From: Clostridia bacterium
Lineage (GTDB): Bacteria; Bacillota; Clostridia; Christensenellales; DTU072
Length of the DNA: 54,370 bases
Assembly: GCA_017461065.1 (NCBI GenBank)
Contig: JAFTZC010000014.1
Coordinates: forward strand, 1-54,370
Direction: 5' to 3'
Part shown: in pieces, positions 49 through 30,941 of the stretch
How positions within the stretch are numbered: position 1 is the stretch's first letter
How the letters are laid out: every line of letters begins with the position of its first letter
Translations under genes and position numbers: made by a program
The notes under the pieces: generated by a model
Seen by the model: only the letters and a program-made list of their open reading frames with translations
Database searches by the model: none
What the model was told of the DNA's origin: nothing

Positions 49-1131
49 ATGATAAAGGTTATTGCAATTTTTGGTGGCGACTCCACCGAGCACGACGTCA
101 GCATTATAACGGCGGTTGAAGCGATGAACGCCGTAAACTACGTTGACTACAAGGTATACCCGGCATATATATTGGACGGCGCTTGGTACACGGGCGAAGA
201 TATGTTGGAAGTGGGCACTTTTGTGGATTTTGAGCCCAAAAAGCACAAAAAAATAAGGCTAATCGGGCGTGAACTACAGTATCAAAAGGGAAAGCGGTGG
301 AAGCACCTTGACGACGTAGACGTAGCTCTCGTACTAACTCACGGTGGCGTGGGCGAGCGCGGAGAGTTGCAAGGCTACCTTGAGCTACAAGGGTTGCCGT
401 ACACTACGGGAGATAGTTCGGCGCTTAGCTTGTGTATGGATAAGTATCTAACCAAAATTGCCGTAAAGGACTTGGGATACGACGTGGTGGCTGGCGTAAA
501 AATCAGTGACGATTGCCCCGAAACTGCGCTAAAAGTTGCAAAAAAGCTGGGATATCCCTTGTTTGTCAAGCCAAACGGACAGGGCAGTAGTATAGGGGTA
601 GGCTATGCCCTGGGCGAAAAAGAGCTGCTTGAAAAGGTGGAAGTGGCTCTTAGTTACGATGCCCAAGTGCTAATTGAAAGGGGTATGCAAAATTTCGCGG
701 AGTACAACTGCGCCGTGCTTGCGCTTGGAGACACGATAGTGGTTTCCGAAGTGGAAAAACCGCTAACTGCCCACGATTTTTTGAGTTTTGAAGACAAATA
801 TATGGCGTTTTCCAAGGGTGAGAGCTACGATAAGCGCGAGTTCCCTGCAAAAATAAGCGACGAGCTCCGCCAAAAAATAAAATCCATCGCAGGGGATATT
901 TTCCTAAAATTCAATCTAAAAGGGGTGGTGCGCTTTGATTTCATATATGCCGATAAGCTCTATCTCAACGAAATCAACGCCGTACCCGGCTCGCTCGCAC
1001 ACTATCTATTCCCCGACTACACTCATTCGACCTTCCTATCTCTGCTCATCGACGACGCCTTATACCGTAAGAGCAAAAAAAGCGCCGTTTTCAAGTCAAA
1101 CGTACTTAAAATCGGCGCACCTAAAGGTTAA
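49..1131 (+). CDS. ddl: D-alanine--D-alanine ligase
   Basis: IFGGDSTEHDVS N-terminus, HGGVGERGELQG, YPLFVKP-GSSIG and RFDF...LNEINAVPG ATP-grasp motifs; SD GAGGT. Confidence 0.93.
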   Translation: MIKVIAIFGGDSTEHDVSIITAVEAMNAVNYVDYKVYPAYILDGAWYTGEDMLEVGTFVDFEPKKHKKIRLIGRELQYQKGKRWKHLDDVDVALVLTHGGVGERGELQGYLELQGLPYTTGDSSALSLCMDKYLTKIAVKDLGYDVVAGVKISDDCPETALKVAKKLGYPLFVKPNGQGSSIGVGYALGEKELLEKVEVALSYDAQVLIERGMQNFAEYNCAVLALGDTIVVSEVEKPLTAHDFLSFEDKYMAFSKGESYDKREFPAKISDELRQKIKSIAGDIFLKFNLKGVVRFDFIYADKLYLNEINAVPGSLAHYLFPDYTHSTFLSLLIDDALYRKSKKSAVFKSNVLKIGAPKG

Positions 1132-2006
1132 ATTCTAATTTTGTAATAATCCATCATACCTTTAAATTTGTCTTGAGCGGCAAGACAGGTGTCTTTTAGA
1201 TAGCCTTTTTCATTGCGCCACTCGGCAAGCCCACGGTAGTAGAAAAATTTAAGACTTTCGTCAATAATAAAAGGAATTATGCCGTTTTTCAAGCATTCTT
1301 TTAGCATAATTAGTCTACCGATTCTGCCGTTGCCGTCTTGGAAAGGGTGGATAACTTCAAATTTATAGTGGAACTCAAGTATATCCTCAAGCGTAGGCTT
1401 TTTGATTTGATTATATGCTTTGATTAACGCACACAATTCTTCCTTAACCAAGTTGGGTGGCGTAGTTTCTCTGCCACCGACTTGATTGGGGTGTAGCTTA
1501 TAATCACCCACTCTAAACCAATTTTTACGTGAGTCGGAAGTGCCGTTTTTTAGTATAAAATGCAATAGTTTTATTAAATCTTGACTAATAGGCTTGTTTG
1601 CAGTCTCGATTATAATGTCAATTGCGCGGAAGTGATTGGTAGTTTCCACTATATCATCAACTTTGATAGTGGCCTTCGAAAAGCCGCCAATCGTGTTGGT
1701 TTCAAAAATATATCTCGTTTGGTCGTGGGTTAAGGTACTGCCTTCAATGTGGTTAGAGTTGAAAGTAAGATCAACCTGCAATTGATGATAAATTCCACCA
1801 CTGATGCCATTATTTTTTTCCCATAGTAGGGTGTCAAGCAGTTTTTTTCTCTCTAACCTAACGGGCTTATCGGCAATTTCGGGTATATACCACGTTTTTC
1901 CTTTGAGTATGGCGCCATCAACTCTGTTTTCAGAGCAATAAAAACGCACGCTTGGCTCCGAAACGCCCCATTTTTTAGCAGTTTCACTTACGTTTAGATA
2001 TTTCAT
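1128..2006 (-). CDS. Fic-family protein with N-terminal HTH DNA-binding domain
   Basis: Canonical Fic motif HPFQDGNGRIGR and SNHIEG motif; excisionase-like HTH (SETAKKWGVSEPSVR); AT-rich relative to its neighbours. Confidence 0.92.
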   Translation of the reverse strand: MKYLNVSETAKKWGVSEPSVRFYCSENRVDGAILKGKTWYIPEIADKPVRLERKKLLDTLLWEKNNGISGGIYHQLQVDLTFNSNHIEGSTLTHDQTRYIFETNTIGGFSKATIKVDDIVETTNHFRAIDIIIETANKPISQDLIKLLHFILKNGTSDSRKNWFRVGDYKLHPNQVGGRETTPPNLVKEELCALIKAYNQIKKPTLEDILEFHYKFEVIHPFQDGNGRIGRLIMLKECLKNGIIPFIIDESLKFFYYRGLAEWRNEKGYLKDTCLAAQDKFKGMMDYYKIRI

Positions 2007-2184: not shown

Positions 2185-2313
2185 TAAAACGCGTTAGTTT
2201 GGATGAAAGCCGACGGAAAAGATAAAAGCTCACGAAGCGGAGCGTACTTGGCGTACGTGACCGAGTGAGCTTTTGTGTTTTTTCTATTGATTTCGCCAAA
2301 ATAACGCGTTTTA
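2185..2313 (-). repeat. 129-nt imperfect palindromic hairpin element (copy A)
   Basis: 12-bp terminal IR TAAAACGCGTTA/TAACGCGTTTTA; central GTACTTGGCGTAC (2244-2256); begins at the rqcH stop codon. Confidence 0.85.
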
Positions 2314-3981
2314 AGCTTCTTTTTTTGGTGCAACTATAATAGTCTTATAATTAGTATAGGTTACAAGTCCAATCTTGCCGAGTTTCTTGACGTTCTTCCT
2401 TTCGGTGTAGTCCACTTCGACTTTGGTGTCTTCGCGCCCTTCGGAGTAGTAGGCTACTATCTCGGCTACTCGCTCCAAAACGGTAGGGGGAACGGGTTTG
2501 CCTTTTGATAAAATAACCCCGTGGGAGCCGTGATAGGTCTTGGTGTGAAGCCAGGTATCGTTGCTACTTGCCAAGCCAAAAGTGACTTCGTCGTTTTGCA
2601 AATTGTTCTTGCCGACGTATACTTTAAAGCCAGCGATTTCAAGGGATAGTGGGGGAGTTTTCTTGGGCTTTTTCGGGTTCTTTTTGTGGCTGTCTTTTTG
2701 GACTTGTACGGGCAGTTTTTTTAGGCTGTCAAGCTCCGAGTTAATCTCTTGATACTCGGCTTCCGTCGAGCAGTTTTGCACCGCTACCTTTATGGTTTTA
2801 AGGTATTCCTGTAGCTCCAAAAGTCGCTTTAGTTCTTCCCGTGCGTAGGCTTCCGCGCCCTTTGCTTTGTTGTACCGCTTAAAGTACTTTTCTACGTTCT
2901 TTTGGGGCGAAATAAGGGGATCTAAGGTAATTTCTACCAACCCCGTATTATAAAAATCGTCGCAATTTATAATACTCATACCCTTGTTAATGCGGTAAAT
3001 ATTGCATTTTAAAATTTCGCCGAGTTCTCTATAGCGCTCCTTCTTTTCCGTGTCCAAAAGCGTTTGCTCGTTGTCCTTTATTCTACGCTCGGTTTTGTTG
3101 GTAATGGCCTTTAGTTTTTGGTTGAGCTTTAGGGTGTCGCGTTGCTTTTTTAGAGCTTCGCCCGATGCCTTGTAAAAGGCGTCGATTGCGCCCGACAAAG
3201 TGCTCTCTTTTTTGTACTCGCCCTTGTCCATTCTCGATAGGTATGGGTAGGCGAAAAATCCAACGCATTTGCCCTTATTATCCCATTGGCTGACTGGCTC
3301 GAATAAGTCGCTGTGGTAGCTGTCGTCCACAAGGTTGCTTGCAGCGCTAACGCCCATTTGGTTTACGCGTGCCATAAGCTCAAGCGCGCTTTCCTTGCTG
3401 AGTCCGTTTAGTGTGCCGTATACTTTTTTGACTTCACCACTTGCACAAGCAGCGCTAACGGCTTCAAGGTCGGTTATGCTTGCTTTGCTTTTTGGCGGAT
3501 AGGTGTAGCTCGCTCCAGGGAAAACCACCCTTGACTCAAGGTTCATAACTCTTTTTACGGCGTCGATTATCTTGTAGTCTTCGCGAAGCAAAATAATATT
3601 TGAAGCGCCACCCATAATTTCGATAATCAAACGGAAAGTGGTAGCGTCGTTTAGCTCGTTGCGTGCTACGATTGTGAACTCAAAAAGCCTGTCTTCGTTT
3701 AGGATTTTTACGTCTTCCACCACGCCGAACAGGATATGTTTACGCAGTAACATACAAAAATTGGGTGGAGTGGGGGCGTTTTGGAATCTTACCTTGGTAA
3801 AATGCACTCTCGGAGTATCGGCGCGTGCGCTAAGGTACAAAGCGTGATTTTCTCCGCGCGAACGCACGACGAGCACGACTTCGTCGTCCGAGGGCATACC
3901 GATTTTATCAATTCTTCCGTCGGTAAGGATATCCTTCATCTCGTAAGCGAGAGCTTTTAGCGTTACTAAATCGTTTGGCAT
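2311..3981 (-). CDS. rqcH: Rqc2/RqcH (NFACT, FbpA-like) ribosome quality-control protein
   Basis: FCMLLRKH, LIIEIMG..SNIIL, VGKNNLQNDEVT, WLHTK..HGSH and VDYTERKNVKK motifs. Confidence 0.93.
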   Translation of the reverse strand: MPNDLVTLKALAYEMKDILTDGRIDKIGMPSDDEVVLVVRSRGENHALYLSARADTPRVHFTKVRFQNAPTPPNFCMLLRKHILFGVVEDVKILNEDRLFEFTIVARNELNDATTFRLIIEIMGGASNIILLREDYKIIDAVKRVMNLESRVVFPGASYTYPPKSKASITDLEAVSAACASGEVKKVYGTLNGLSKESALELMARVNQMGVSAASNLVDDSYHSDLFEPVSQWDNKGKCVGFFAYPYLSRMDKGEYKKESTLSGAIDAFYKASGEALKKQRDTLKLNQKLKAITNKTERRIKDNEQTLLDTEKKERYRELGEILKCNIYRINKGMSIINCDDFYNTGLVEITLDPLISPQKNVEKYFKRYNKAKGAEAYAREELKRLLELQEYLKTIKVAVQNCSTEAEYQEINSELDSLKKLPVQVQKDSHKKNPKKPKKTPPLSLEIAGFKVYVGKNNLQNDEVTFGLASSNDTWLHTKTYHGSHGVILSKGKPVPPTVLERVAEIVAYYSEGREDTKVEVDYTERKNVKKLGKIGLVTYTNYKTIIVAPKKEA

Positions 3982-3987
3982 ATCTCA

Positions 3988-4016
3988 ATTATAACCAAAC
4001 GGGCTTAACTACGCAA
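3988..4016 (-). promoter_or_regulatory. sigmaA promoter of rqcH (probably leaderless)
   Basis: Minus strand TTGCGT-17-TATAAT, then 6 nt to ATG; no SD. Confidence 0.65.
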
Positions 4017-4043
4017 CCGATTTCTAAGAATTACCAAAAACAG

Positions 4044-4072
4044 TTGCAATTACCCTTTATATTTGTTATTAT
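4044..4072 (+). promoter_or_regulatory. sigmaA promoter of tig
   Basis: TTGCAA-17-TATTAT, divergent from rqcH. Confidence 0.6.
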
Positions 4073-4128
4073 ATACGGGCGCACGCAAAAGCGCATTAAC
4101 TCAAGAACAATTCGGAGGTATATAAATT

Positions 4129-5457
4129 ATGGAGTATTCAGTACAAAAACTCGAAAAATCAAAGGTAGAAATCTCTATTTCTATCGAAAAAGAAGAATGG
4201 ATGAGCTACATCCAAGAAGCTTACAACAAGAATAAGCATCGCTATGCTATCGATGGTTTCCGCAAGGGTAAAGTTCCATTTAACTTTATCGTTAAGAGAT
4301 ACGGCATCGAATTCTTCTTTGAAGACGGCGCAGACATCGCTATGAGCAAGACCTATTCGGAAGTTGTCGAAAAGGAAAAGCTTGACGTTGTATCACGTCC
4401 CGAAGTTGACATCAACAACATTGACGAAGACGGTCTCAAGTTCACCGTTGGCGTAGCAGTATATCCTGAGTTCGAAGTTGCTCAATATACCGGTTTGACC
4501 CTAAAGAAGGTTGTAAACAAGGTTAAGAAGGCAGAAATCGATGCAGAAATCAACCGTGAGCTCGAAGGCAACGCACGTTTCATCAACGTAACCGACCGTG
4601 AAGTACAAAGCGGCGATATGCTAACTCTCGATTATAGTGGCGCAGTTGACGGCGTTAAGTTCGAAGGCGGCACTGCAGAAAAGCAAGCACTCACCATTGG
4701 TTCAAACCAATTCATTCCCGGCTTTGAAGACCAACTTATCGGCAAGAAGATTGGCGAAGAATGTGCTATCACCGTAACTTTCCCTGCTGAATATCACGCA
4801 GCTGACCTTGCAGGCAAGGAAGCAGTATTCACCTGCCTTATCCACGAAATCAAGGTTAAGGAACTCCCTGCACTTGACGACGAATTCGCAAAGGATCTTG
4901 GATTTGATAAGCTAACCGCATACAAAGCAGACGTTAAGGCAAGACTTCAAAAGAAGGCTGACGAGCAAGCTATCACCGAAGAAAACGAAGCACTTCTTTC
5001 AAAGATCGTTGATGCAACCGAAGTTGACATTCCCGATTGTATGATCGAAGAAGAACTTGATAGATTTGTCGGCAATATGAAGGCAAATATGGCACAATAC
5101 GGCCTAAAGTTTGAAGATTATCTCAAATATGCACAAACCACCGAAGAAGCAATCCGTGCAGAGCGCAAAGACGCATGTGCAAAGGAACTCAAGATCGGTA
5201 TTGTAATCGAAGCTATCGTTAAGAAGGAAAATCTCGTACCCACCAAGGAAGACTTCGAGCAAGCTATGGAAAAAGCAGCTGAAGAGCAAGGTATGACCAA
5301 AGAAGAGTTTGCTAAGAGCGCAGACGAACGCACCTATAACTATATGATGACTCGTCTAATGGACGAAAAGCTCATCGCATACCTACGCGAGAACAACACC
5401 TTCGAAGAAAAGAAGAGCACCAAGAAGGCAACTGAAAAGGCAAAAGACGCTGAATAA
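4129..5457 (+). CDS. tig: Trigger factor
   Basis: GFRKGKVP ribosome-binding motif, FKBP domain (FIPGFEDQLIG), SD GGAGG. Confidence 0.97.
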   Translation: MEYSVQKLEKSKVEISISIEKEEWMSYIQEAYNKNKHRYAIDGFRKGKVPFNFIVKRYGIEFFFEDGADIAMSKTYSEVVEKEKLDVVSRPEVDINNIDEDGLKFTVGVAVYPEFEVAQYTGLTLKKVVNKVKKAEIDAEINRELEGNARFINVTDREVQSGDMLTLDYSGAVDGVKFEGGTAEKQALTIGSNQFIPGFEDQLIGKKIGEECAITVTFPAEYHAADLAGKEAVFTCLIHEIKVKELPALDDEFAKDLGFDKLTAYKADVKARLQKKADEQAITEENEALLSKIVDATEVDIPDCMIEEELDRFVGNMKANMAQYGLKFEDYLKYAQTTEEAIRAERKDACAKELKIGIVIEAIVKKENLVPTKEDFEQAMEKAAEEQGMTKEEFAKSADERTYNYMMTRLMDEKLIAYLRENNTFEEKKSTKKATEKAKDAE

Positions 5458-5483
5458 TCTCAAACGCCAAAAATAGCATAAGT

Positions 5484-5512
5484 GCGCCGTTTTGGTCAGA
5501 CTAAAGCGGCGC
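5484..5512 (+). other. GC-rich intergenic hairpin without U-tract between tig and clpP
   Basis: GCGCCGTTTTGGT-CAG-ACTAAAGCGGCGC. Confidence 0.5.
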
Positions 5513-5564
5513 TCTATTGGGTACAATAGTTAGGGGACAAAGCAACGTTATAAGGAGAATTTTT

Positions 5565-6173
5565 ATGGTAAACGAAATCAAATCGGTAATGATGCCGATT
5601 CCAACTGTAATCGAGCAATCCAACAGGGGCTCTACTGCATACGATCTATATTCAAGACTACTTGAAGACAGAATTATTTTCCTAACGGGACAAATTGACG
5701 ATGCGACTGCAAACTTAGTAGTCGGACAGTTGTTATATCTTGAAACTAAGGACCCAACCAAGGATATATGTTTATACATCAACTCACCCGGTGGCTCGGT
5801 TACTGCAGGAATGGCGATATTCGACACTATGAACTACATCAAGTGCGACGTATCGACGATATGCGTAGGTATGGCGGCATCAATGGGCGCATTCCTACTT
5901 GCAGCAGGCACCAAGGGCAAGAGGATTGCTCTTCCCAACAGTGAAGTTATGATTCACCAACCACTCGGCGGAGCACAAGGACAAGCAAGCGACATCAAAA
6001 TCGTTGCCGACCATATCTTGAAAATCAAGGCAAAGCTCAACAAGTTCTTAGCCGAAGCAACGGGCAAGCCCATCGAAGTAATCGAGCGCGACACCGACCG
6101 TGACAACTATATGTCAGCTGAAGAAGCCAAGGCATACGGACTTGTCGACGAAGTTTTCTACACAAGGAAATAG
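5565..6173 (+). CDS. clpP: ATP-dependent Clp protease proteolytic subunit
   Basis: [28 protein letters not shown]; start moved to ATG 5565 after AAGGAG. Confidence 0.97.
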
Positions 6174-6181
6174 GGGTATAG

Positions 6182-7411
6182 ATGGAATTTATAGACGAAA
6201 AACTCAATTGTTCCTTCTGTGGCAAGAGTGAAGACGAAGTCGACGTGCTATACGCAGGTCAAGACGGTGCTTTGATATGCAGAGAGTGTGCCGAAAAGCT
6301 TACCGAGCTATTCCGCAAGGAAGAGCTTGCTGCTAAGCCCGTAGGGGATATCAACCTAATATCTCCAAAGGAGATAAAGGCTAAGCTCGACGAGTATATC
6401 GTAGGCCAAGACGAAGCCAAAAAGATACTATCCGTTGCCGTATACAACCACTACAAGCGTATTGCGGCAAAGGGCTCTGATAAGTATAAAGACGTCGTTT
6501 TGGAAAAGAGCAACATACTTATGCTCGGACCGACGGGAAGCGGCAAGACGCTGCTTGCAAAGACGCTTGCAAGCATCTTGAACGTGCCCTTTGCTATTGC
6601 CGATGCAACCGCACTTACCGAAGCAGGTTACGTAGGCGAAGACGTCGAAAACATACTCCTAAAGCTCATACAAGCATCAAAGGGCGACGTCAAGCGTGCC
6701 GAAAAGGGCATCATTTACATTGACGAAATCGACAAAATCTGTCGCAAGTCGGAAAACGTCTCTATCACTCGTGACGTATCGGGCGAAGGCGTACAACAAG
6801 CGCTACTCAAAATTTTGGAGTCTACGGTAGCAAACGTACCACCGCAAGGGGGCAGAAAACATCCCCAGCAGGAGTTTATTCCAATTGATACCACCGATAT
6901 ATTGTTTATATGTGGCGGTGCGTTCGTAGGGCTCGAAAAGATAGTTGACAAGCGCAAGGACACTTCGTCTATCGGCTTTAACGCAAACCTAAGGAACAGC
7001 GAAGAAAGCTACTCCGAGATGATGAGCGACCTACGTCCCGACGACCTAATAAAGTTTGGCTTAATCCCCGAATTCGTAGGCAGAATACCCGTCGTAGCGG
7101 TACTTGACCCACTTGACGAAAAGGCACTCGTCAACATTTTGAAAGAGCCTAAGAACGCGCTCACCAAGCAGTACCAAAAGCTACTTGATATGGACGGCGT
7201 AGAGCTCGAGTTTAGTGACGAAGCGCTAAGCGCCATAGCCGACAAGGCGTTGAAGCTCAAGACGGGCGCAAGAGGACTACGTACGATAGTCGAAAACGCC
7301 ATACTCGGCGTTATGTACGAAGTACCGGGCGACAAGACGATATCAAAAATCGTCATCACACCCGAGTGCATAAGCGGCACCGCCAAGCCCACGATTATAC
7401 GCGTGGCATAG
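6182..7411 (+). CDS. clpX: Clp protease ATP-binding subunit
   Basis: CSFCGK zinc finger, [29 protein letters not shown]. Confidence 0.98.
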
Positions 7412-7433
7412 GTCAAAACACCAATAATTTACA

Positions 7434-7463
7434 TTGATTTTATCACCCTTGCGGTGATAAAAT
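7434..7463 (+). promoter_or_regulatory. Putative lon promoter overlapped by an 11-bp perfect inverted repeat
   Basis: TTGATT-18-TAAAAT; ATTTTATCACC-N5-GGTGATAAAAT at 7437-7463. Confidence 0.5.
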
Positions 7464-7482
7464 TGTCTATAAGGATAAACTT

Positions 7483-9762
7483 ATGAAGAACGCAAGAATG
7501 ATAATGATAGCGACCGAGGAAGTGGTTTTCCCCTACGAGTGCGGAAAGCTACGCGTTACCGAAGACGCTGATATTTTAGCAATACAAAGGGCGGTCAGCG
7601 AGGGCGAAAAGATTGTTCTCGTACCCGTCAGAGTAGGCGAGCGCCCAAAGGACGGCGACGTAGGTATCGTCACCGAAGTGGAGCAATTTATTTACGTCCC
7701 CGAAGACAACGAGGGCGCTATACTAATGTATAAGACGGGCACGCGCCGCAACTACATCCACGAGATGGAGTGCGACGGCATTGCAACCACCGTATCCCTT
7801 GCATCTTGTCCTTTTTACGACTCTGGCGACGAGTTCACTCTCCGCACTTATTTTGAGCGCGCAAGCGAGCTGTTTATGAATCTTAGCGGCATTCTAAAGG
7901 GTGTCAACGGCAGCGCGATTAGGCTTGAGTACGATAGCGTAAACACCGATATTGATGCAATCGTAATTTGGCTAAAGACGGCAGATAAGTATCTATTCTT
8001 CACTTGCTTGGATACCGAAACACGCCTAATGGAGTTTTGCAAGGCACTTGATATGGAAGTATACGCAATGGGCCTTGATATCCAAGTTGCAGAAAAAGTT
8101 CGCACGTCTATGGACCAAAGCCAACGCGAGTATTACGTACGCGAGCAAATACGCGCTCTCTCCGAAGAAATCGGGGATGAAGACGAAGAAGGTCAATATC
8201 TTCAAAAGATAGATAACCTTTTGACCACCGATGCTAACAAGGAAAAATTCCGTCGCGAAGTTCGTAGGTTGAAGCGTACTGCGCCTGCAAGTCCCGATAT
8301 GGCGCTAATCAAAAACTATCTCGACACCATTTTGGAGCTTCCTTGGGGCGTATATACCGACGACAACGAAGACCTCAAGGTGGCAAAGAAAGTTCTTGAC
8401 GAAGACCACTACGGCATCAACAAGGTTAAGGAAAGGCTTATCGAAGCGCTTGCAGTAAGAAAGCTATCCAAAGAGGGTAGGAGTCCCATCATTTGTTTGG
8501 TAGGCCCGCCCGGAATTGGCAAAACTTCTATTGCAAAGTCCATTGCAAGGGCGATGAACAAAAAATACGTTCGTTTGAGCTTTGGCGGCGTACGTGACGA
8601 AGCTGAAATTCGCGGACACCGCAAGACCTACGTAGGCGCAATGCCGGGTAGAATTATCACGTCCATACAATCGGCTGGCAGTATGAACCCCGTATTCCTA
8701 ATGGACGAAATCGACAAGATGGCGTCCGACTACAAGGGTGACCCTGCAAGTGCGTTACTTGAAGTATTGGACCCTGCACAAAACGTCAACTTCCGCGACC
8801 ACTTCTTGGAAGTACCTTTTGATTTATCCAAGGTATTGTTTATCGTTACGGCAAACACGCTCGATACCATTTCAAGACCGCTCCTTGACAGAATGGAAGT
8901 CATCGAAATGACGGGCTATACCGCTCCCGAAAAGTTGGAAATTGCTATGCGCTATATCATTCCACGCGCACTTGAGCAAAACGGCGTAGACAAAAAGTGG
9001 ATGAGCATTGATAGGGACACCGTAAGTCATATCATCGAGTATTACACCCGCGAAGCAGGTGTTAGAATGCTCGAAAAGCAAATCAACGCAGTTGTACGCA
9101 AGGTTGCACGCAAGTACGTCGAAAACCCACGCACGCGCAAAGTTAAAATAAATAAGGATAATATTAAGGATTATCTTGGCGAGCCCGTCGTGCTACCCTC
9201 AAAAGGCCCACGCAAGGACGAAGTAGGCGTAGTAACAGGTCTTGCTTGGAACGCGGTTGGCGGAGACATCACCGAAGTAGAAGTTGCCTACTCAAAGGGC
9301 AAGGGCAATTTGGTGCTTACGGGCAGTCTTGGCGACGTTATAAAGGAAAGTGCTAAGATAGCAATAAGCTATCTTAAAGTACACGCAAGCGAGTATGGTA
9401 TCGCTGACGATTTCTTTGAGAAGCACGATATCCATATCCATATGCCCGAAGGTGCCGTTCCAAAGGACGGACCAAGCGCAGGCATCACCTTTACTACGGC
9501 AATTTGCTCGGCAATTACGGGCAAAAAGGTACGTGGCAATGTTGCAATGACGGGTGAAATTAGTCTTGTCGGCAAGGTACTGCCAATCGGTGGACTAAAG
9601 GAAAAGACGCTTGCAGCCCTTCGTGAAGGGATTGTCAAGGTATTCCTACCCGAAGACAACCGCAAGGACTACAAGGAGCTACCCGAGCTTGTAAAGGAAA
9701 AGATAGAATTCAGATACGTAGAGCGCGTAGAAGACGTGCTAAAGGAAGCGATAATATGGTAA
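7483..9762 (+). CDS. lon: Lon protease (divergent N-domain)
   Basis: GPPGIGKTS, EIRGHRKTYVGAMPG and PKDGPSAG catalytic motif. Confidence 0.96.
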   Translation: MKNARMIMIATEEVVFPYECGKLRVTEDADILAIQRAVSEGEKIVLVPVRVGERPKDGDVGIVTEVEQFIYVPEDNEGAILMYKTGTRRNYIHEMECDGIATTVSLASCPFYDSGDEFTLRTYFERASELFMNLSGILKGVNGSAIRLEYDSVNTDIDAIVIWLKTADKYLFFTCLDTETRLMEFCKALDMEVYAMGLDIQVAEKVRTSMDQSQREYYVREQIRALSEEIGDEDEEGQYLQKIDNLLTTDANKEKFRREVRRLKRTAPASPDMALIKNYLDTILELPWGVYTDDNEDLKVAKKVLDEDHYGINKVKERLIEALAVRKLSKEGRSPIICLVGPPGIGKTSIAKSIARAMNKKYVRLSFGGVRDEAEIRGHRKTYVGAMPGRIITSIQSAGSMNPVFLMDEIDKMASDYKGDPASALLEVLDPAQNVNFRDHFLEVPFDLSKVLFIVTANTLDTISRPLLDRMEVIEMTGYTAPEKLEIAMRYIIPRALEQNGVDKKWMSIDRDTVSHIIEYYTREAGVRMLEKQINAVVRKVARKYVENPRTRKVKINKDNIKDYLGEPVVLPSKGPRKDEVGVVTGLAWNAVGGDITEVEVAYSKGKGNLVLTGSLGDVIKESAKIAISYLKVHASEYGIADDFFEKHDIHIHMPEGAVPKDGPSAGITFTTAICSAITGKKVRGNVAMTGEISLVGKVLPIGGLKEKTLAALREGIVKVFLPEDNRKDYKELPELVKEKIEFRYVERVEDVLKEAIIW

Positions 9763-10364
9763 TCAAAAACGCAGAATTTATCACGAGCGCAGGCACGGTC
9801 GAGCAAATCATCAAGGGTAGTACCCCCGAAATCGCGGTAGTAGGCCGCTCCAACGTAGGCAAGTCGAGTTTTATCAACTTTATGTGCAACCACGGTCGTC
9901 TTGCCAAGACGTCCAAGGAGCCGGGCAGAACTCGTCTAATCAACTACTTTGACGTCAACAAGGGCGAATTCATCTTCGTTGACCTACCTGGCTATGGTTT
10001 TGCCAAGGTAAACGATAACGAAAAGGCCAAGTGGGGCAAGATAATTGAAGCATACCTTCAAGAAAGCACGGGGCTCAAAAACGTTTTCGTGCTACTTGAC
10101 ATTAGGCGCGAGCCAAATGCCGACGACGTCCAAATGCTCAACTACCTATACCACTACAACATACCTTTCACCATCATTGCCACCAAGGGCGACAAGCTTA
10201 GCCGTAGTGCAGGCTTAAAGCGCAAAAGAGAGATAGCAAACGCCCTTAAAGTAGGTGTTGGCAACGTACTTTTGACGTCCAGCCTAAACAAGAGCGGCGC
10301 ACAAGAAGTTCTTGACCGAATTGAAAACATTTTGGAAGTAGAAGAACTTCCCATTGAAGAATAG
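9756..10364 (+). CDS. engB: Ribosome biogenesis GTPase YihA/YsxC
   Basis: GRSNVGKSS, DLPGYG, TKGDK; follows lon. Confidence 0.96.
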   Translation: MVIKNAEFITSAGTVEQIIKGSTPEIAVVGRSNVGKSSFINFMCNHGRLAKTSKEPGRTRLINYFDVNKGEFIFVDLPGYGFAKVNDNEKAKWGKIIEAYLQESTGLKNVFVLLDIRREPNADDVQMLNYLYHYNIPFTIIATKGDKLSRSAGLKRKREIANALKVGVGNVLLTSSLNKSGAQEVLDRIENILEVEELPIEE

Positions 10365-10669
10365 TGCGAAAGCGAGCTTTCGCAATGAAATACAAAAGCT
10401 AATGCTTTTTGCAATAAATACTCTCGCCTTGCGAGAGCAAGAAATACCTTCACTCCGTTCGGCGCGAAATACAAGTGCAAGCACTTGCGTTAAGGAAAGA
10501 GCATATACTAAGTACTACGATATGCTTTAACTCTCTAATACCGTAACGCAAAAAACTTGTTTTTTGTATTTATTGCCTTGGAGCGTTAGCGCAAAGGTAT
10601 TTATCGCCCGTAGGGTATTTATCGCTGAGCGCAAGCGAAGTATTTATCGCGAATGCTTTGCATTCCGCA
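10365..10669. repeat. Symmetric branched repeat/hairpin element (~305 nt)
   Basis: Four GC-N2-3-(G/T)AAATAC repeats on the left and four GTATTTAT(C/T)GC on the right, each separated by short hairpins, around a central stem. Confidence 0.85.
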
Positions 10670-10691
10670 TTTACGACAGTAAGGAGTAACT

Positions 10692-11393
10692 ATGAAAGTT
10701 TTCGCAATAAGCGACCCCCATCTTTCCTTTGACGAAACCAAGCCAATGAATATTTTTGGCTCGGTTTGGGATAACCATTGGGATGAAATTACTAAGGATT
10801 GGGATAATAGGGTATCGGATGACGATATCGTGCTTATTGCCGGTGATATTTCGTGGGCGATGAAGCTCGAAGACGCCAAGCGCGACCTTGAGCTGATTGG
10901 CAAGCAAAAGGGCATAAAGGTACTTATCCGTGGCAACCACGACTATTGGTGGAGTAGTTACAAAAAAATCCAAGAGATACTCCCCGAAAACCTATATTGC
11001 CTGCAAAACAACGCCGTTAAGTTCGGTAACGTCATTATATGTGGCACTCGCGGTTGGTCGGTGCCCGAACTCGGAGTGGAAACCGACGAGCACGATTTGC
11101 TCCTATACGAGCGTGAAAAACTCCGTTTGGAGCTTTCCCTAAAGGAAGCCAAAAAGCTATGGCAGGAAGGGGATATCATCATTGCAATGATGCACTTCCC
11201 ACCATTCAACTCAAGGTACTTGAGTTCACACTTTACCGATTTATTCAAAGAATACGGCGTACATAGCGTAGTTTACGGACATCTCCACGGCAACGCATCT
11301 CGCACCGTTCTCGTCTACGAAAAGCAAGGTATTTCTTATTATCTTACTTCTTGCGATAAGCTTAATAATAAACTCCAAATAATAGAAATATAG
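10692..11393 (+). CDS. Calcineurin-like metallophosphoesterase
   Basis: DPH, GDIS, GNHD, HFPP and GHLH motifs. Confidence 0.92.
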   Translation: MKVFAISDPHLSFDETKPMNIFGSVWDNHWDEITKDWDNRVSDDDIVLIAGDISWAMKLEDAKRDLELIGKQKGIKVLIRGNHDYWWSSYKKIQEILPENLYCLQNNAVKFGNVIICGTRGWSVPELGVETDEHDLLLYEREKLRLELSLKEAKKLWQEGDIIIAMMHFPPFNSRYLSSHFTDLFKEYGVHSVVYGHLHGNASRTVLVYEKQGISYYLTSCDKLNNKLQIIEI

Positions 11394-11515
11394 ACCACGA
11401 ATTTTAGCGATATACTTTGAAAAACGCAACCCACGGCAGGGCGCAGTACGCCAAGTACAGCAACCCTTTGTGGGTTTTCTTTTTCTTCGTCTATCATCTA
11501 AACTTCGTGGTCTAT
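11390..11515 (+). repeat. 126-nt imperfect palindromic hairpin element (copy B)
   Basis: 12-bp terminal IR ATAGACCACGAA/TTCGTGGTCTAT; central GTACGCCAAGTAC (11446-11458); overlaps the upstream TAG stop. Confidence 0.85.
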
Positions 11516-11532
11516 CGTGCTTTAGGTCACTT

Positions 11533-12036
11533 TTAATTTTCTAATGAATCATCTAATTCAGCATCTTCAAGCGCGCCAAAATTATAGATGTCTATGAATT
11601 TTTTATTTTTTGCATATTTGTAGGTAGCGTAGGCGCCACCTATGCTATAATCCACGTAGGCGAATAGAATTATAGACTTATCAATCATATACTTGTTACG
11701 TGCAAGTATGGCGTATTTTGGTGGGATATGTTCGATAGGTGGGGTGATGATTCCGTCGTAGTAGCCGTCTTGTACTAACAAATCCAATTCTTTTAGATAG
11801 CTTTCGTTAAAGTAGGGTGTAACGACGTAAACTTTAATGGTAGGGAAATATTCTTTTAGTTCTTTTAGTATTACTGCGCAAGTGGAATCAAAAGCTCCTT
11901 GGGCGCCGCAGTAAAAGGTTAATACGCCGCTTTCAATAGTTTCTTTGAGTGCTTTTCTAATTTTTTTTCGTGTAGAATTAGAAAGATAAACATCTCTGTG
12001 TCCAATAAACGTTGCAATTAACCCATTGTTTTTCAT
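11533..12036 (-). CDS. SLOG-superfamily (YpsA/DUF1273-like) protein
   Basis: TFIGHR, GAQGAFD, ARNKYMIDKS and GGAYATYKYA motifs; AT-rich. Confidence 0.8.
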   Translation of the reverse strand: MKNNGLIATFIGHRDVYLSNSTRKKIRKALKETIESGVLTFYCGAQGAFDSTCAVILKELKEYFPTIKVYVVTPYFNESYLKELDLLVQDGYYDGIITPPIEHIPPKYAILARNKYMIDKSIILFAYVDYSIGGAYATYKYAKNKKFIDIYNFGALEDAELDDSLEN

Positions 12037-12110: not shown

Positions 12111-12174
12111 TTTAACATTTTACCACAAAATGAGTATAAAGTAAATACATATTATGTTTAAAAAGAGGTTAGAA

Positions 12175-12351
12175 ATGGCTGTTAAAAGTTTATCTATTAG
12201 AATTGAAGAAGAAATGTTAGATAAGTTGCACGTTGTTGCTGATTACGAAGAAAGGAGCGCTAACAGCCAAATAATAATCTTGATACGGAATTGTATTGAT
12301 GAATTTGAACAAAAGCACGGTAAGATTATCGTGAGTGAAAAAGATGAATAG
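12175..12351 (+). CDS. Arc-family ribbon-helix-helix DNA-binding protein
   Basis: SLSIRIEEEMLDKLHVVADYEERSANSQI pattern; start at ATG 12175 after GAGGT. Confidence 0.85.
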   Translation: MAVKSLSIRIEEEMLDKLHVVADYEERSANSQIIILIRNCIDEFEQKHGKIIVSEKDE

Positions 12352-12352
12352 T

Positions 12353-12377
12353 AAAGAGCCGATAGGCTCTTTTTTTT
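12353..12377 (+). terminator. Intrinsic terminator
   Basis: AAAGAGCC-GATA-GGCTCTTT plus T-run. Confidence 0.8.
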
Positions 12378-12407
12378 ATCCCAAAAACCATAACTACCTT
12401 TTTGTTT

Positions 12408-12475
12408 GCTGATAAGCAAAGCACTTATCAGCGAATGCAATTTCGCATTCCTCACTCACCATTCCTCATTTTTAA
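12408..12475 (-). repeat. Two hairpins plus a degenerate heptamer array
   Basis: GCTGATAAG/CTTATCAGC and GAATGC/GCATTC hairpins, then TTTCGCA TTCCTCA CTCACCA TTCCTCA TTTTTAA. Confidence 0.65.
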
Positions 12476-12484
12476 CTAATCCAC

Positions 12485-12582
12485 AACTTTTAGCCTTAGC
12501 TAAAAACTTCACTTGTGCTCTGCTCAAACTTCACTACGCAGTAACTTCACTGCGTAGCAACTTCACCTGCGATATCATCGCA
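12485..12582. repeat. AACTTCAC x4 array with mini-hairpin spacers
   Basis: AACTTCAC at 12505, 12527, 12543 and 12559; flanking TTTTAGC/GCTAAAA and TGCGAT/ATCGCA hairpins. Confidence 0.8.
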
Positions 12583-12679
12583 TTACATTTAGAACGCTTG
12601 TTCACATTCGTTCTATTTTTTTGCTCAAAATTTGGTTTGTTTCCCTAATTTTCCCTAAATCACCCTTGATTTTTAATTA

Positions 12680-26593: not shown

Positions 26594-27288
26594 TTAACGT
26601 ATTAACCAAATTTTTGGCACTCATAAAAAGAATGTTTTCGCTTACCGATACCGTGGATTATATGGTGTCTTTGCCAAGTCCGCTCGAAGGGGAAGAAGAA
26701 CTAAAGTGCATCAAGCTTGCCGAAAGCGGTGACGTCGATGCTCGCAATACCTTGATTGAACGCAATCTTAGGCTTGTAGTCTATATTGCCAAGCGCTTTG
26801 ACAATACGGGTATGGATATGGAAGAACTCATCAGCGTGGGAACCATTGGGTTAATCAAGGCGGTAAAGAGTTATAATTCCGAAAAGAAGATTAAGCTTGC
26901 AACCTACGCTTCAAGGTGTATTGAAAACGAAATACTGATGTATCTTCGCAAAATGGTCAAAACCAAAAGCGAAGTCAGCCTTGACGAGCCTTTGAACGTC
27001 GATTACGAGGGTAACAAGCTGCTGCTTAGCGACGTGCTTGGCACCGATGGAGGCGAGATATATCGCGAAGTGGAAAACGAAGTTGAAAAGGGGATACTGC
27101 GCGAGCTGTTTATGAAGTTATCCGAGCGCGACCGCTCTATAATATGTATGCGTTACGGGTTGTACGGCGTTGAGGAAAAAACTCAAAAGGAAATTGCCGA
27201 TATGATGGGTATATCACAGTCCTACATAAGCCGCCTTGAAAAGCGTATACTCGAAAAACTCAAGTCTGAATTTATGAAACTCGAATAA
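26590..27288 (+). CDS. sigE: Sporulation sigma factor E
   Basis: [42 protein letters not shown]; ATG 26590 overlaps the spoIIGA stop. Confidence 0.95.
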
Positions 27289-29836: not shown

Positions 29837-30538
29837 CTAAAATTCCAAATTTTCATCTTTTATGGCCGTGCGAAGTTTTTGTAGCACGGCTTTTTCAAGG
29901 CGCGAAACGTAACTACGAGATATGCCGAGCGCGTTTGCGGTAATTTGTTGCGACTTAGGTTCGTCACCGCTAAGACCGTATCGCATATCTATTAGTATTT
30001 TTTCCCTTTCGGTTAGGTGTCTGTCAAGCAGTTTCTTTATTCCTTGTCGCGTTACGGCATCTTCCGTCTTTTTATAGACCGTGTCTTCGTCAACGGAAAG
30101 CATATCTATAATTTGGAGCTGATTGCCGTCCTTGTCCGTGCCTATTTCGTCATATAGAGATAGGTCGTTTTGGCGCTTTTTGTAGGAGCGCATAGCCATT
30201 AGGATTTCGTTTTCGATGCACCTTGAAGCGTAAGTTGCAAGGGTCGTGCTTTTATCCCCTTTGTAGGTGTTTATCGCCTTGATTAAACCAATGGTCCCAA
30301 CCGAAATTAGCTCGTCTTTGTCGGGATAATTGGTATATTTTTTGGCTATGTATACTATTAGCCTAAGGTTATGCCTTACGAGGGTATCCCTTGCAGATAG
30401 GTCGCCCGCGTGAAATTTGTCCAAATACTCCTTTTCCTTTTCGGGGGATAGGGGATGTGGAAAAGAGTTATTACTTTCAATGCCCGAAGTTAGGAGCAGT
30501 ACGCCCGAAATTACTGCAAAAAAGCCTTCTAATAAAAT
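29837..30538 (-). CDS. sigK: Pro-sigmaK, uninterrupted (no skin element)
   Basis: [39 protein letters not shown]; frame extends upstream through a hydrophobic pro-sequence and SFPHPLS to an ATT after GAGG. Confidence 0.9.
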   Translation of the reverse strand: MLLEGFFAVISGVLLLTSGIESNNSFPHPLSPEKEKEYLDKFHAGDLSARDTLVRHNLRLIVYIAKKYTNYPDKDELISVGTIGLIKAINTYKGDKSTTLATYASRCIENEILMAMRSYKKRQNDLSLYDEIGTDKDGNQLQIIDMLSVDEDTVYKKTEDAVTRQGIKKLLDRHLTEREKILIDMRYGLSGDEPKSQQITANALGISRSYVSRLEKAVLQKLRTAIKDENLEF

Positions 30539-30597: not shown

Positions 30598-30623
30598 AAA
30601 AAATCCACCATAAGGTGGACTTT
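30598..30623 (-). terminator. Terminator of RNase P RNA
   Basis: Minus strand GTCCACC-TTAT-GGTGGAT plus T-run. Confidence 0.75.
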
Positions 30624-30624
30624 G

Positions 30625-30935
30625 AGTTAGTCTATAAGCCGAGTTCTGTATTTGACGACCATCTGTCTTGCCCCATAGTCACCTATGGGATCTAGCGATT
30701 GAGGGGACGGACGGGCAGCCCATAGTCCCTTTTCTCTTGCATCGAGTGGGGTTTACACAGCCAATTTCGTCGCCGAACTGCTGGTGAGCTCTTACCTCAC
30801 CTTTTCACCCTTGCGATAAATCGCGGTATTTTTCTGTTGCACTTTCCCTAAAGTTGCCTCCGGCAGGATTTCTCTGCCACTCTGCCCTGTGATGCTCGGA
30901 CTTTCCTCACACTTGGTGCAGCCGTCTGACTAACT
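30625..30935 (-). ncRNA. rnpB: RNase P RNA (compact, type A-like)
   Basis: Minus strand GAGGAAAGTCCGAG, GAAAGTGCAACAGAA, GGGTGAAA...GGTAAGAGC and ACAGAACTCGGCTTA; P1 AGTTAGTC/GACTAACT. Confidence 0.97.
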
Positions 30936-30941
30936 ACGTTT

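Follow-up and report, generated by a model that had tools for sequence, protein, structure and literature searches.

A dispersed family of long hairpin repeats that start on stop codons in uncultured gut Clostridia

REP, ERIC, BOX and SPRITE sequences are known small interspersed palindromes, and how and why such elements settled at the ends of genes is debated. REP elements and REPINs are high-copy extragenic palindromes at gene 3' ends that keep their hairpins through compensatory changes and form mosaics with other motifs. Their units of 20–40 nt occur singly or as inverted doublets, and the copies are homogeneous within a genome but different between species. REP/BIME elements and REPINs with RAYT transposases were reportedly the subject of work by Bertels and Rainey in 2011. 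ERIC is an imperfect palindrome over its full length and is intergenic. The attC sites of chromosomal integrons fold over about 60–140 nt, with a conserved structure and conserved unpaired bases in a variable sequence; they are homogeneous within a genome and directly follow an ORF in its orientation, sometimes including its stop codon. In Streptococcus pneumoniae, the available portion of the published account describes SPRITE as a terminator-like repeat with a long stem and a U-rich tract, and BOX repeats as encoding the stop codon of 36 of the 58 coding sequences that they overlap (PMC3049150). For bcr1, the available portion of the source describes 5-bp direct repeats and non-conserved sites, and compensatory changes are reported for the fold (PMC3184786).

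The window analyzed here is a 54,370-nt stretch of a Clostridia bacterium genome (contig JAFTZC010000014.1 of assembly GCA_017461065.1), in which a sequence-only reading had pointed out two long hairpins. Both are full-length copies of a hairpin repeat. Copy A (2185–2313, minus strand) lies at the end of a gene encoding an RqcH/FbpA-like NFACT protein (2311–3981, minus strand; Pfam NFACT_N, E = 1.5e-96), and its closing helix opens with the TAA stop codon of that gene (2311–2313), which is the first triplet of the copy. The closing helix of copy B (11390–11515, plus strand) opens with the TAG stop codon (11391–11393) of a calcineurin-like phosphoesterase gene (10692–11393, plus strand; Pfam Metallophos, E = 3.8e-17). 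The sequences quoted in the sequence-only reading are exact, and each copy folds as a single end-to-end hairpin on the gene-sense strand, with minimum free energies of -28.9 and -30.2 kcal/mol and z-scores of -5.5 and -6.8 for copies A and B, respectively; none of 200 shuffled sequences was equally stable. As had been noted, the 12-bp closing stems differ in sequence between the two copies and pair perfectly, and the 13-nt apex is the same in both. The apex has two exact matches in the window and one with two mismatches, against 0.95 expected at up to two mismatches. Copy A scores 82 bits with nhmmer. With the covariance model, copy A reaches 98.3 bits on the minus strand versus 49.1 on the plus strand, and copy B 123.6 bits on the plus strand versus 45.1 on the minus strand. 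A third copy, partial and inverted with respect to copy A, had been overlooked. It spans 2092–2170 on the plus strand, comprises the 5' half including the apex (nhmmer model positions 4–82, with the covariance-model core at 2139–2172), has no gene anchor, and matches the corresponding half of copy C4:3953 at 99% identity.

Copy A is followed by a Fic/DOC-domain gene (1128–2006, minus strand; Pfam Fic, E = 3.8e-15), and a YpsA/SLOG-like gene (11533–12036, minus strand) lies 15 nt from the 3' end of copy B. At 11507–11530 on the plus strand, the 3' arm of copy B folds with flanking sequence into a small terminator-like hairpin that precedes a T-run. The claim that each copy is followed by an AT-rich gene stands with respect to composition, the two genes having low GC contents of 0.385 and 0.357 compared with a gene mean of 0.439 in this genome; the gene after copy B is, however, convergent and not co-directional. 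A neighboring foreign gene is found at both window copies, but the enrichment across the family is only about two-fold (low GC in 10 of 45 genes downstream of a copy versus 9.6% of all genes), and the association of the repeat family with foreign genes is only weak. Among the relatives compared, the Fic gene between the NFACT gene and ddl occurs in the present genome only; a convergent ddl directly follows the NFACT gene in five relatives, and a different gene lies between them in two. The C-terminus of the NFACT protein here differs from that of seven relatives without the repeat at this site. The repeat is also found at the end of the metallophosphoesterase gene in G002, G004 and G020, and the C-terminus of this protein is of about equal length in relatives with and without the repeat.

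We identified 56 full-length copies (55 distinct) and about 19 fragments of the repeat in this 1.5-Mb draft genome, which is 78.6% complete and whose genes are crude ORF calls. The copies are spread over at least 35 contigs in both genome orientations. A family had been surmised from two copies; one of this size is beyond what could be seen from the window. The repeat occurs in 10 of the 22 genomes of the genus, which are drafts of 60–97% completeness, and a covariance model identifies the family in 12 of 151 sampled genomes of the order. A form of about 104 nt without the apex occurs in another family of the class. The hosts are uncultured gut Clostridia of the Candidatus Stercoripulliclostridium group and other genera of its order. 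No Rfam family matches the repeat: the sole match in the window is RNase P at 30619–30937, and matches around copy A are at chance level (E 0.28–5.5), far under the gathering scores. In the literature searched, we found no description of the repeat family, which is apparently undescribed and uncatalogued. Short-read contigs of these gut genomes end in the repeat. Contigs from four DNA runs (two strong, of one study, and two weak) also break at repeats, and none spans an empty site; among the sequencing runs listed for the locus there is no RNA run.

The repeat consists of one continuous hairpin of about 128 nt (125–131 nt) with five helices and no short repeated unit, and it is paired throughout, not at the ends alone. 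The closing stems, which form terminal inverted repeats, are 9–14 bp long in nearly all copies. More than nine different terminal-stem sequences occur within one genome, each with its own matching partner, and these stems are hypervariable yet always self-complementary, even at orthologous sites. Compensatory changes are found in 24 of 33 pairs, and 95.8% of cells are paired compared with 81.3% in shuffles (none of 500 reaches 95.8%) and 34–50% in slid controls. It is the structure rather than the sequence that is conserved, as the two window copies had suggested. Within the covarying helices lie a 1x1 mismatch and an internal loop of C against AT (CATC/G), whose conservation between copies A and B extends to invariant columns in the 56-copy alignment (G22; C109 A110 T111 C112); this asymmetric loop is retained even in the form of about 104 nt. 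The apex is of at least three types among the copies, with a conserved core beside variable loops. G-U combinations do not exceed A-C combinations (43 versus 28 and 28 versus 33). Such a lack of G-U excess is unusual for a fold selected in sense-strand RNA alone and fits selection on both strands or on DNA. The fold may act as ssDNA or as RNA, and the G-U counts do not decide between the two.

Starting at a stop codon, first noted for the two window copies, is the defining property of the family. The 5' end lies on the stop codon of a co-oriented ORF in 45 of the 56 copies, whereas the 3' end is anchored in 1 of 56; the corresponding numbers are 51 versus 1 among 97 copies in sister species and 44 versus 0 among 54 copies in other genera of the order. 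Unanchored and tandem copies make up 11 of the 56, and in tandems the second copy directly adjoins the first at its 3' end, with no ORF involved. With co-directional neighbors, 22 copies are in gene orientation and 2 are opposite. The stop codon pairs and covaries with the 3' end of the repeat (TAA-TTA, 69; TGA-TCA, 14 of 15; TAG-CTA, 8), and this covariation of all three stop codons is seen in the distant genera. Upstream of the stop codon, pairing exceeds chance at position -1 alone (48%) and is at chance level (20–27%) from -2 to -8. The anchored genes with an annotation (20 of 47) include the housekeeping operon ends rpsI, rpsR, fusA, obg, guaA, pckA, fhs and hom. Replication-strand targeting of the IS200/IS605 type was considered as the source of the fixed orientation and rejected; the copies follow genes, with 29 of 40 on the skew-defined leading strand versus 71% of genes.

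The inner stem (columns 42–49 with 86–93) is followed by at least four T residues within 10 nt in all 56 copies, and the outer stem ends in at least four T residues in 52 of them. Like an intrinsic terminator, the repeat has a G+C-rich stem with an immediate T-run. A separate terminator-like hairpin follows within about 100 nt in 2 of 55 copies. Among genes without the repeat, 282 of 1076 have a terminator-like hairpin within 120 nt of the stop codon. A simple terminator scan, which allows loops of no more than 8 nt, does not pick up the long hairpins of the repeat. These ordinary hairpins start mostly 5–35 nt past the stop codon, with a mode at 20–24 nt, whereas the repeat starts on it; only 11 of the 282 start within 0–4 nt, and the idea that terminators of this genome generally start on the stop codon was discarded. 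The repeat resembles ordinary Rho-independent (two-way) terminators in its position at operon ends and in having a G+C-rich stem together with an A-run and a T-run. However, it is about four times longer, forms a homologous family, and has conserved asymmetric loops and apex.

Of 38 evaluable gene ends with a repeat in relatives, 29 have a repeat in the present genome too (20 distinct sites). Copies at orthologous sites have a median identity of 0.71, compared with 0.95 for the best paralog, and 1 of 29 copies has its best match in the ortholog. Presence or absence of the repeat at a site differs between species, and two 'empty' sites retain terminal remnants. Between G011 and G005, which are 74–82% identical in the compared regions, the sole apparent empty site is a decayed copy. 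A metagenome scan with the NFACT protein yielded 51 loci, all at 48% identity or less, with no same-species strain for a filled/empty comparison among them. Most copies have TA at both ends, which is compatible with target duplication but is also part of the palindrome, and no high-identity filled/empty pair was found. Copies are both nested and tandem.

Judging from its anatomy, the repeat most likely ends the transcript of the upstream gene. We consider it somewhat probable that the family comprises self-homogenising hairpin repeats of gene 3' ends that are terminator-like, are comparable to SPRITE, BOX or REP, and cap upstream transcripts. Each copy ends an ordinary gene or operon and is co-oriented with it, the stop codon being the first triplet of the closing helix. 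The interior has the layout of nested two-way intrinsic terminators, leading from an A-run through a G+C-rich stem, the structured apex and the return stem to a T-run, and the enclosing outer helix likewise ends in a T-run. The repeat would end and cap the upstream transcript, replacing the ordinary small terminator. As DNA, it behaves as a self-homogenising interspersed repeat: sites are kept between species, and the copy at each of them gives way, by replacement or conversion, to the subfamily current in that genome, a process that would also spread variants already compensated. However, the outer helix covaries most strongly and yet would be absent from the RNA if transcripts stop at the inner T-run, and the terminator reading gives no account of the exact in-frame, one-orientation placement on stop codons.

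As the anchoring is frame-exact, one-sided and extends to all three stop codons, and only translation reads frame, we propose a translation-linked marking of, or homing to, in-frame stops, although we hold this to be quite unlikely. The repeat would represent either a new class of 3'-end RNA device, a ribosome-opened hairpin controlling termination or decay, or a repeat that spreads via a translation- or RNA-linked step and not through a DNA target sequence. Taken by itself, a cis-acting RNA device coupled to translation termination appears decidedly improbable. With the stop codon forming the base of the helix, every terminating ribosome would have to melt the outer helix; this could couple the arrival of ribosomes to the choice of terminator, to mRNA decay or to ribosome rescue, perhaps through a protein recognizing the conserved internal loop and the apex. 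Such a device would accord with exact anchoring across an order, given that presumably only translation distinguishes an in-frame stop from other stop-type triplets, and with a helix that starts at the stop and not before, long-kept sites on housekeeping genes, and an invariant loop and apex core beside variable loops. It is harder to reconcile with the missing G-U excess, with the unanchored and tandem copies, with several apex types and the loss of the apex in the shorter form, and with a turnover at fixed sites that resembles repeat dynamics and not a conserved regulator.

Two other explanations involve mobile DNA. In one, which we regard as unlikely, the repeat is an ssDNA mobile element or recombination site: a structure-specific enzyme (HUH/RAYT-like, a tyrosine recombinase or other) would insert an ssDNA hairpin beside a stop-type triplet, the asymmetric loops would mark one strand, and selection for ssDNA folding would keep the arms complementary. 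Strict Watson-Crick complementarity, terminal stems that vary but remain self-complementary at orthologous sites, and the persistence of the C-against-AT loop in another family of the class all fit, as do tandem copies abutting one another without an ORF, presence/absence variation between species, and the terminal remnants at two 'empty' sites. Despite a search of the 22 genus genomes for Y1/RAYT, IS630, IS110 and integron integrase genes, we found no dedicated transposase or recombinase for the repeat. The suggested analogy with REP/HUH substrates is not supported, as Y1/RAYT transposases do not co-occur with the repeat: PF01797 (Y1_Tnp) is a full gene in only 1 of 10 carriers (G005) and a 32-aa fragment in the present genome (G000), with none in the other eight, versus 6 of 12 non-carriers. 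The analogy with attC sites is likewise not borne out, as the copies are dispersed beside housekeeping operon ends and the integron integrase model (TIGR02249) is above cut-off in none of the 22 genomes. None of the 22 genomes contains IS110, and 2 of 10 carriers contain RT. Orientation tracks genes and not the replication strand, a 3-nt target is insufficient for in-frame placement, and most sites are common to several species. Viral contigs (by pattern search), phages and plasmids gave no matches to the repeat, and no long element bounded by both repeat ends was noticed among the nhmmer matches. The other explanation, a MITE derived from a DDE element, we regard as very improbable. The closing stems would serve an in-trans DDE transposase as terminal inverted repeats, insertion would occur at TA, and the element's own inward-reading stop triplets would cap interrupted frames; the inverted repeats themselves, the terminal TA of most copies, nesting, tandem arrangement and high copy number are compatible with such an element. 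However, with more than nine self-matched terminal stems in one genome, a single sequence-specific transposase cannot explain the repeat, and the full length is paired, not the ends alone. A symmetric element would also be expected in both orientations, against the one-sided anchoring in all three sets of genomes, and the DDE families searched, limited to IS630-type DDE_3 and IS110, are found in 0 of 22 genomes.

The repeat is an unusually clean case of a palindrome settled at gene ends, with dozens of copies per small genome, many host genera, and a closing helix that begins on a stop codon whose changes are matched at the opposite end. This placement is relevant to the connection of translation termination with transcription termination and with the protection of mRNA 3' ends in Clostridia. 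The repeat also disrupts short-read assemblies of these gut genomes, and as a model it would help to annotate gene ends in this uncultured group.

Among known systems, the repeat shares with REP elements and REPINs the multi-copy 3'-end palindromes, compensated hairpins, homogeneity within a genome and difference between species. However, it is one hairpin of 125–130 nt and not a set of 20–40-nt units or doublets, it shows no co-occurrence with RAYT/Y1 genes, and its placement on stops is frame-exact with a fixed orientation. Like attC sites, it has a conserved fold with unpaired marker bases (the C-against-AT loop and the 1x1 mismatch) in a variable sequence. In contrast to attC sites, its copies are neither in cassette arrays nor beside an integrase, the genes ahead of it are core genes at syntenic positions, and its ends consist of a stop triplet and A-run and of a T-run and stop complement, with no 7-nt core boxes when compared by eye with the attC consensus. 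Elements of the ERIC/bcr1 type (about 125–155 nt) resemble it in length, in being imperfect full-length palindromes, and in their intergenic location. The available portion of the bcr1 account has no stop-codon anchoring (PMC3184786), whereas the present repeat is anchored and its sites are largely conserved between species. Set against the available portion of their published descriptions, the repeat groups with SPRITE and BOX as a kind of element and not as a homologous family: these are also dispersed Firmicute repeats of about 100 nt that are enriched near gene 3' ends, are oriented with the gene, cluster, and insert into one another (PMC3049150). Compared with SPRITE and BOX, anchoring on the stop codon is here the rule (45 of 56 copies), the stop codon is paired and covaries with the 3' end, and the repeat forms a single end-to-end hairpin with nested terminator-like stems in many genera of an order.

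We identified a family of palindromic repeats of about 128 nt, hereafter the hairpin repeat, from two full-length copies in the window, copy A (2185-2313, minus strand) and copy B (11390-11515, plus strand). The sequences quoted for them in the sequence-only reading proved exact on re-reading. On the gene-sense strand each copy folds as one end-to-end hairpin (-28.9 and -30.2 kcal/mol; z = -5.5 and -6.8), and none of 200 shuffles folds as well. The copies are a genuine finding and a chance hairpin is excluded. The earlier claim that the hairpins include the upstream stop codon also stands, the first triplet of the closing helix being the NFACT gene's TAA (2311-2313) in copy A and the metallophosphoesterase gene's TAG (11391-11393) in copy B. 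A third, partial copy lies inverted at 2092-2170. Comparison with Rfam returned no match at gathering scores, and near copy A only chance-level scores. A covariance model of the family scores one strand far above the other (123.6 versus 45.1 bits and 98.3 versus 49.1 bits), so the orientation of the hairpin repeat is real.

The draft genome that contains the window (1.5 Mb in 81 contigs, 43.8% G+C, 78.6% complete) holds many further copies. Searching it with a profile of 26 seed copies gave 76 non-overlapping places, 57 of them full-length matches; removal of a weak, false match on contig C48 left 56 full-length copies, of which 55 are distinct because one copy was counted twice at two contig ends. 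The copies are mosaics of modules. The closing stem occurs in several sequences, each with its own matching partner, and the adjoining helix has A/G alternatives with T/C opposite to match. The inner stem is G+C-rich and variable, and the apex is of three types. Conservation is found in the C-versus-AT internal loop (invariant G22; C109 A110 T111 C112) and in the apex core.

RNAalifold predicts 33 base pairs in the alignment of 56 copies, and 24 of these show compensatory double changes, which bears out the covarying pairs reported from two copies. At the predicted pairs, 95.8% of cells pair compared with 81.3% in column shuffles, and none of 500 shuffles attains the observed value. Sliding the partners by 1-3 columns reduces pairing to 34-50%, and the covariation score is 0.375 versus 0.117. 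G-U is not in excess over A-C (43 versus 28 in this genome, 28 versus 33 in distant copies), which argues for a constraint on strict complementarity. The hallmark of a fold selected solely in sense-strand RNA is missing.

What defines the family is its position. With genes called crudely as ORFs of 90 aa or more, a gene 3' end lies at the 5' side of 50 of the 56 copies, and in 45 of these 50 the stop codon occupies a fixed place within the first bases of the element, an arrangement that we refer to as anchored. At the other side, a gene end lies 12 nt or less from the element's 3' end in only one of the 56. Between co-directional neighbours, 22 copies follow the orientation of the genes and two oppose it. 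The 11 unanchored copies include three tandem second copies behind an anchored one and the contig-edge duplicate. The skew-defined leading strand carries 29 of 40 copies and 660 of 930 genes (71%), similar shares which indicate that orientation tracks the genes and not replication. Ordinary terminator-like hairpins in the same genome rarely start at the stop codon (11 of 282 within 0-4 nt, with a mode of 20-24 nt), so the anchoring is special to this family.

In three sets of anchored copies, all bases of the stop codon pair in 31 of 45, 33 of 48 and 27 of 43 cases. Pooled over these sets, TAA faces TTA 69 times, TGA faces TCA in 14 of 15 cases, and TAG faces CTA in eight. Upstream of the stop codon, 48% of copies are paired at position -1, and farther out pairing is at the chance level of 20-27%. 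Of the 47 anchored genes, 20 were annotated, and among these are genes that close housekeeping or metabolic operons, such as rpsI, rpsR, fusA, obg, guaA, pckA, fhs, hom, dhaK and rimI; four of the 20 have no match.

The sites are often shared between species. Forty of 48 anchored genes from sister species were matched in the genome containing the window, and 29 of 38 evaluable gene ends, representing 20 distinct sites, carry a copy there too. The protein terminates at an unchanged residue in eight of the nine empty cases. Two empty sites (C49:14531 and C64:4451) retain only 8-10 nt of the element's 5' end, including the stop codon, which indicates that interior deletion leaves an element-derived stop in place. 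Copies at orthologous sites have a median identity of 0.71 compared with 0.95 for the closest paralog within a genome, and the ortholog is the best match in one of 29 cases. The sites are therefore old, while their sequence undergoes turnover or homogenisation inside each genome. When copies from orthologous sites are compared, 161 pairs have changed on both sides and still pair, and 55 single and 22 double changes break the pair. Given this turnover, part of the compensatory signal reflects the spread of already matched variants. However, selection on pairing is still required at each variant's origin.

The association with foreign genes noted from the window holds in part. At the site of copy A, NFACT is followed directly by a convergent ddl gene in five relatives and by a different gene in two. 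Compared with these seven, the genome containing the window is the only one in which copy A, a half copy and a low-GC Fic gene occupy the site; there ddl (plus strand) and the inserted Fic gene (minus strand) end on overlapping stop codons (1128-1131), leaving no spacer. The NFACT-ddl gap contains a TIR-like gene in G004 and G017, two genomes of the same genus, and these differing contents mark it as a variable spot. The gene end that carries copy B also carries a copy in three congeneric genomes (G002, G004 and G020), and five other relatives examined lack one. Taking the family as a whole, the G+C content is 0.385 or less in 10 of 45 downstream genes compared with 9.6% of all genes (binomial p ~0.009, with crude gene calls). 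A Pfam scan of the ten lowest-GC neighbours left five without a match, and most of ten normal-GC neighbours encode ordinary enzymes, transporters or regulators. The association with accessory genes is thus real but secondary.

Several other repeats were observed in and around the window. Directly after the hairpin repeat, at 2171-2184 and likewise on the 3' side of about 15-19 others, is a module of heptamer units (GAATGAAGAATTAGGAGTGA-type runs) or another small hairpin module, so that these gene ends are polar mosaics always starting with the big hairpin. A second family of about 260 bp, at 10387-10650 between the engB-like and phosphoesterase genes, consists of small hairpins spaced by GAAATAC-type heptamers followed by an inverted set of those units. 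The genome has at least 12 more copies at 90-96% identity, copies of about 80% occur in G020, and contig depth at 10387-10650 is about 450-530 compared with about 26 elsewhere. The region 12153-12586 is probably another repeat, with a depth of about 206-219 versus about 25; the contigs of two runs break at 12513-12538. Two arms of 129 nt (26821-26949 and 30188-30316; 72% complementary, 3.2 kb apart) form an inverted repeat that flanks the region of the bacterial class A RNase P RNA (30619-30937, minus strand, 243.8 bits).

A 26-letter apex pattern matched nine of 22 genomes of the genus and none of 19 genomes from 19 other sampled genera of the order, and the reversed pattern gave no matches; BLAST added a tenth carrier (G015). 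A scan of species representatives gave at least 90 loci, one from an unrelated MAG, and the hosts among the matches listed are Candidatus Stercoripulliclostridium and Clostridia MAGs from human, sheep, goat and mouse gut. Among the full copies at the sister loci listed, 51 of 97 are anchored at the 5' end versus one at the 3' end (ORFs of at least 80 aa; five loci are duplicates). Scanning related genomes with the covariance model, built from the 56-copy alignment, extended the range: full-length matches occur in 12 of 151 genomes and 10 of 95 genera of the order sample, and seven of 151 genomes matched in the class sample, including all five of one genus in another family. The form in that other family (loci L229 and L230; G281 and G308) is about 104 nt long; it retains both the outer helix and the internal-loop motif (GGCGAA / UUCAUCC), with a plain stem-loop as apex. 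Anchoring in the distant genera is likewise one-sided (44 of 54 copies at the 5' end, none at the 3' end), and a TGA stop is frequent there, with its complement at the element's 3' end.

The arrangement of the hairpin repeat suggests an effect on transcript ends. Its inner module runs from an A-run through stem, apex and return stem to a T-run, with at least four T in the 10 nt after the inner stem in all 56 copies, and the outer helix ends in at least four T in 52 of 56. A separate terminator-like hairpin follows two of 55 copies versus 282 of 1076 genes without the element. From these sequence features a terminator function is likely; the repeat would end and cap the 3' end of the upstream transcript, probably from both sides. 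However, the outer helix covaries strongly although transcripts that end at the inner T-run would not contain it. This strong covariation, together with the frame-exact, one-sided anchoring and the absent G-U excess, keeps two further readings alive: a single-stranded DNA element, which we consider unlikely, and a translation-coupled RNA, which we consider quite improbable.

The single-stranded DNA reading had raised the prospect of a co-occurring recombinase or HUH/RAYT gene, and this was not borne out for the five enzyme families sought in the 22 genus genomes. No integron integrase passed the cut-off in any of them. A full Y1_Tnp (RAYT/IS200) gene is present in one of ten carriers, with a 32-aa fragment in the genome containing the window, and is commoner in non-carriers (six of 12). 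IS630-type DDE_3 and IS110 are found in none of the 22, and reverse transcriptase occurs in two of ten carriers and two of 12 non-carriers, so that none of these five families tracks the repeat. Neither was the repeat found in viral contigs, phages or plasmids. Draft MAGs often lose mobile genes, and the absence of an enzyme is therefore weak evidence. Terminator function is still the reading that we prefer.

Known repeats and sites for comparison include REP/REPIN-RAYT, ERIC and attC, and REPs near stop codons affect ribosome stalling. The nearest described kinds, in the portions of the papers available, are the pneumococcal repeats SPRITE, which is terminator-like and lies near 3' ends, and BOX, which encodes the stop codon for 36 of 58 overlapped coding sequences (PMC3049150; both also mentioned in PMC10969869), and bcr1 is described with compensatory changes in the accessible part of PMC3184786. 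The family goes unmentioned in the available part of a 2026 survey of metagenomic 3' stem-loops. The hairpin repeat is apparently a previously undescribed, widespread variant of small interspersed palindromic repeats, and its distinguishing trait is a closing helix that starts on the stop codon of the upstream gene and covaries with it.
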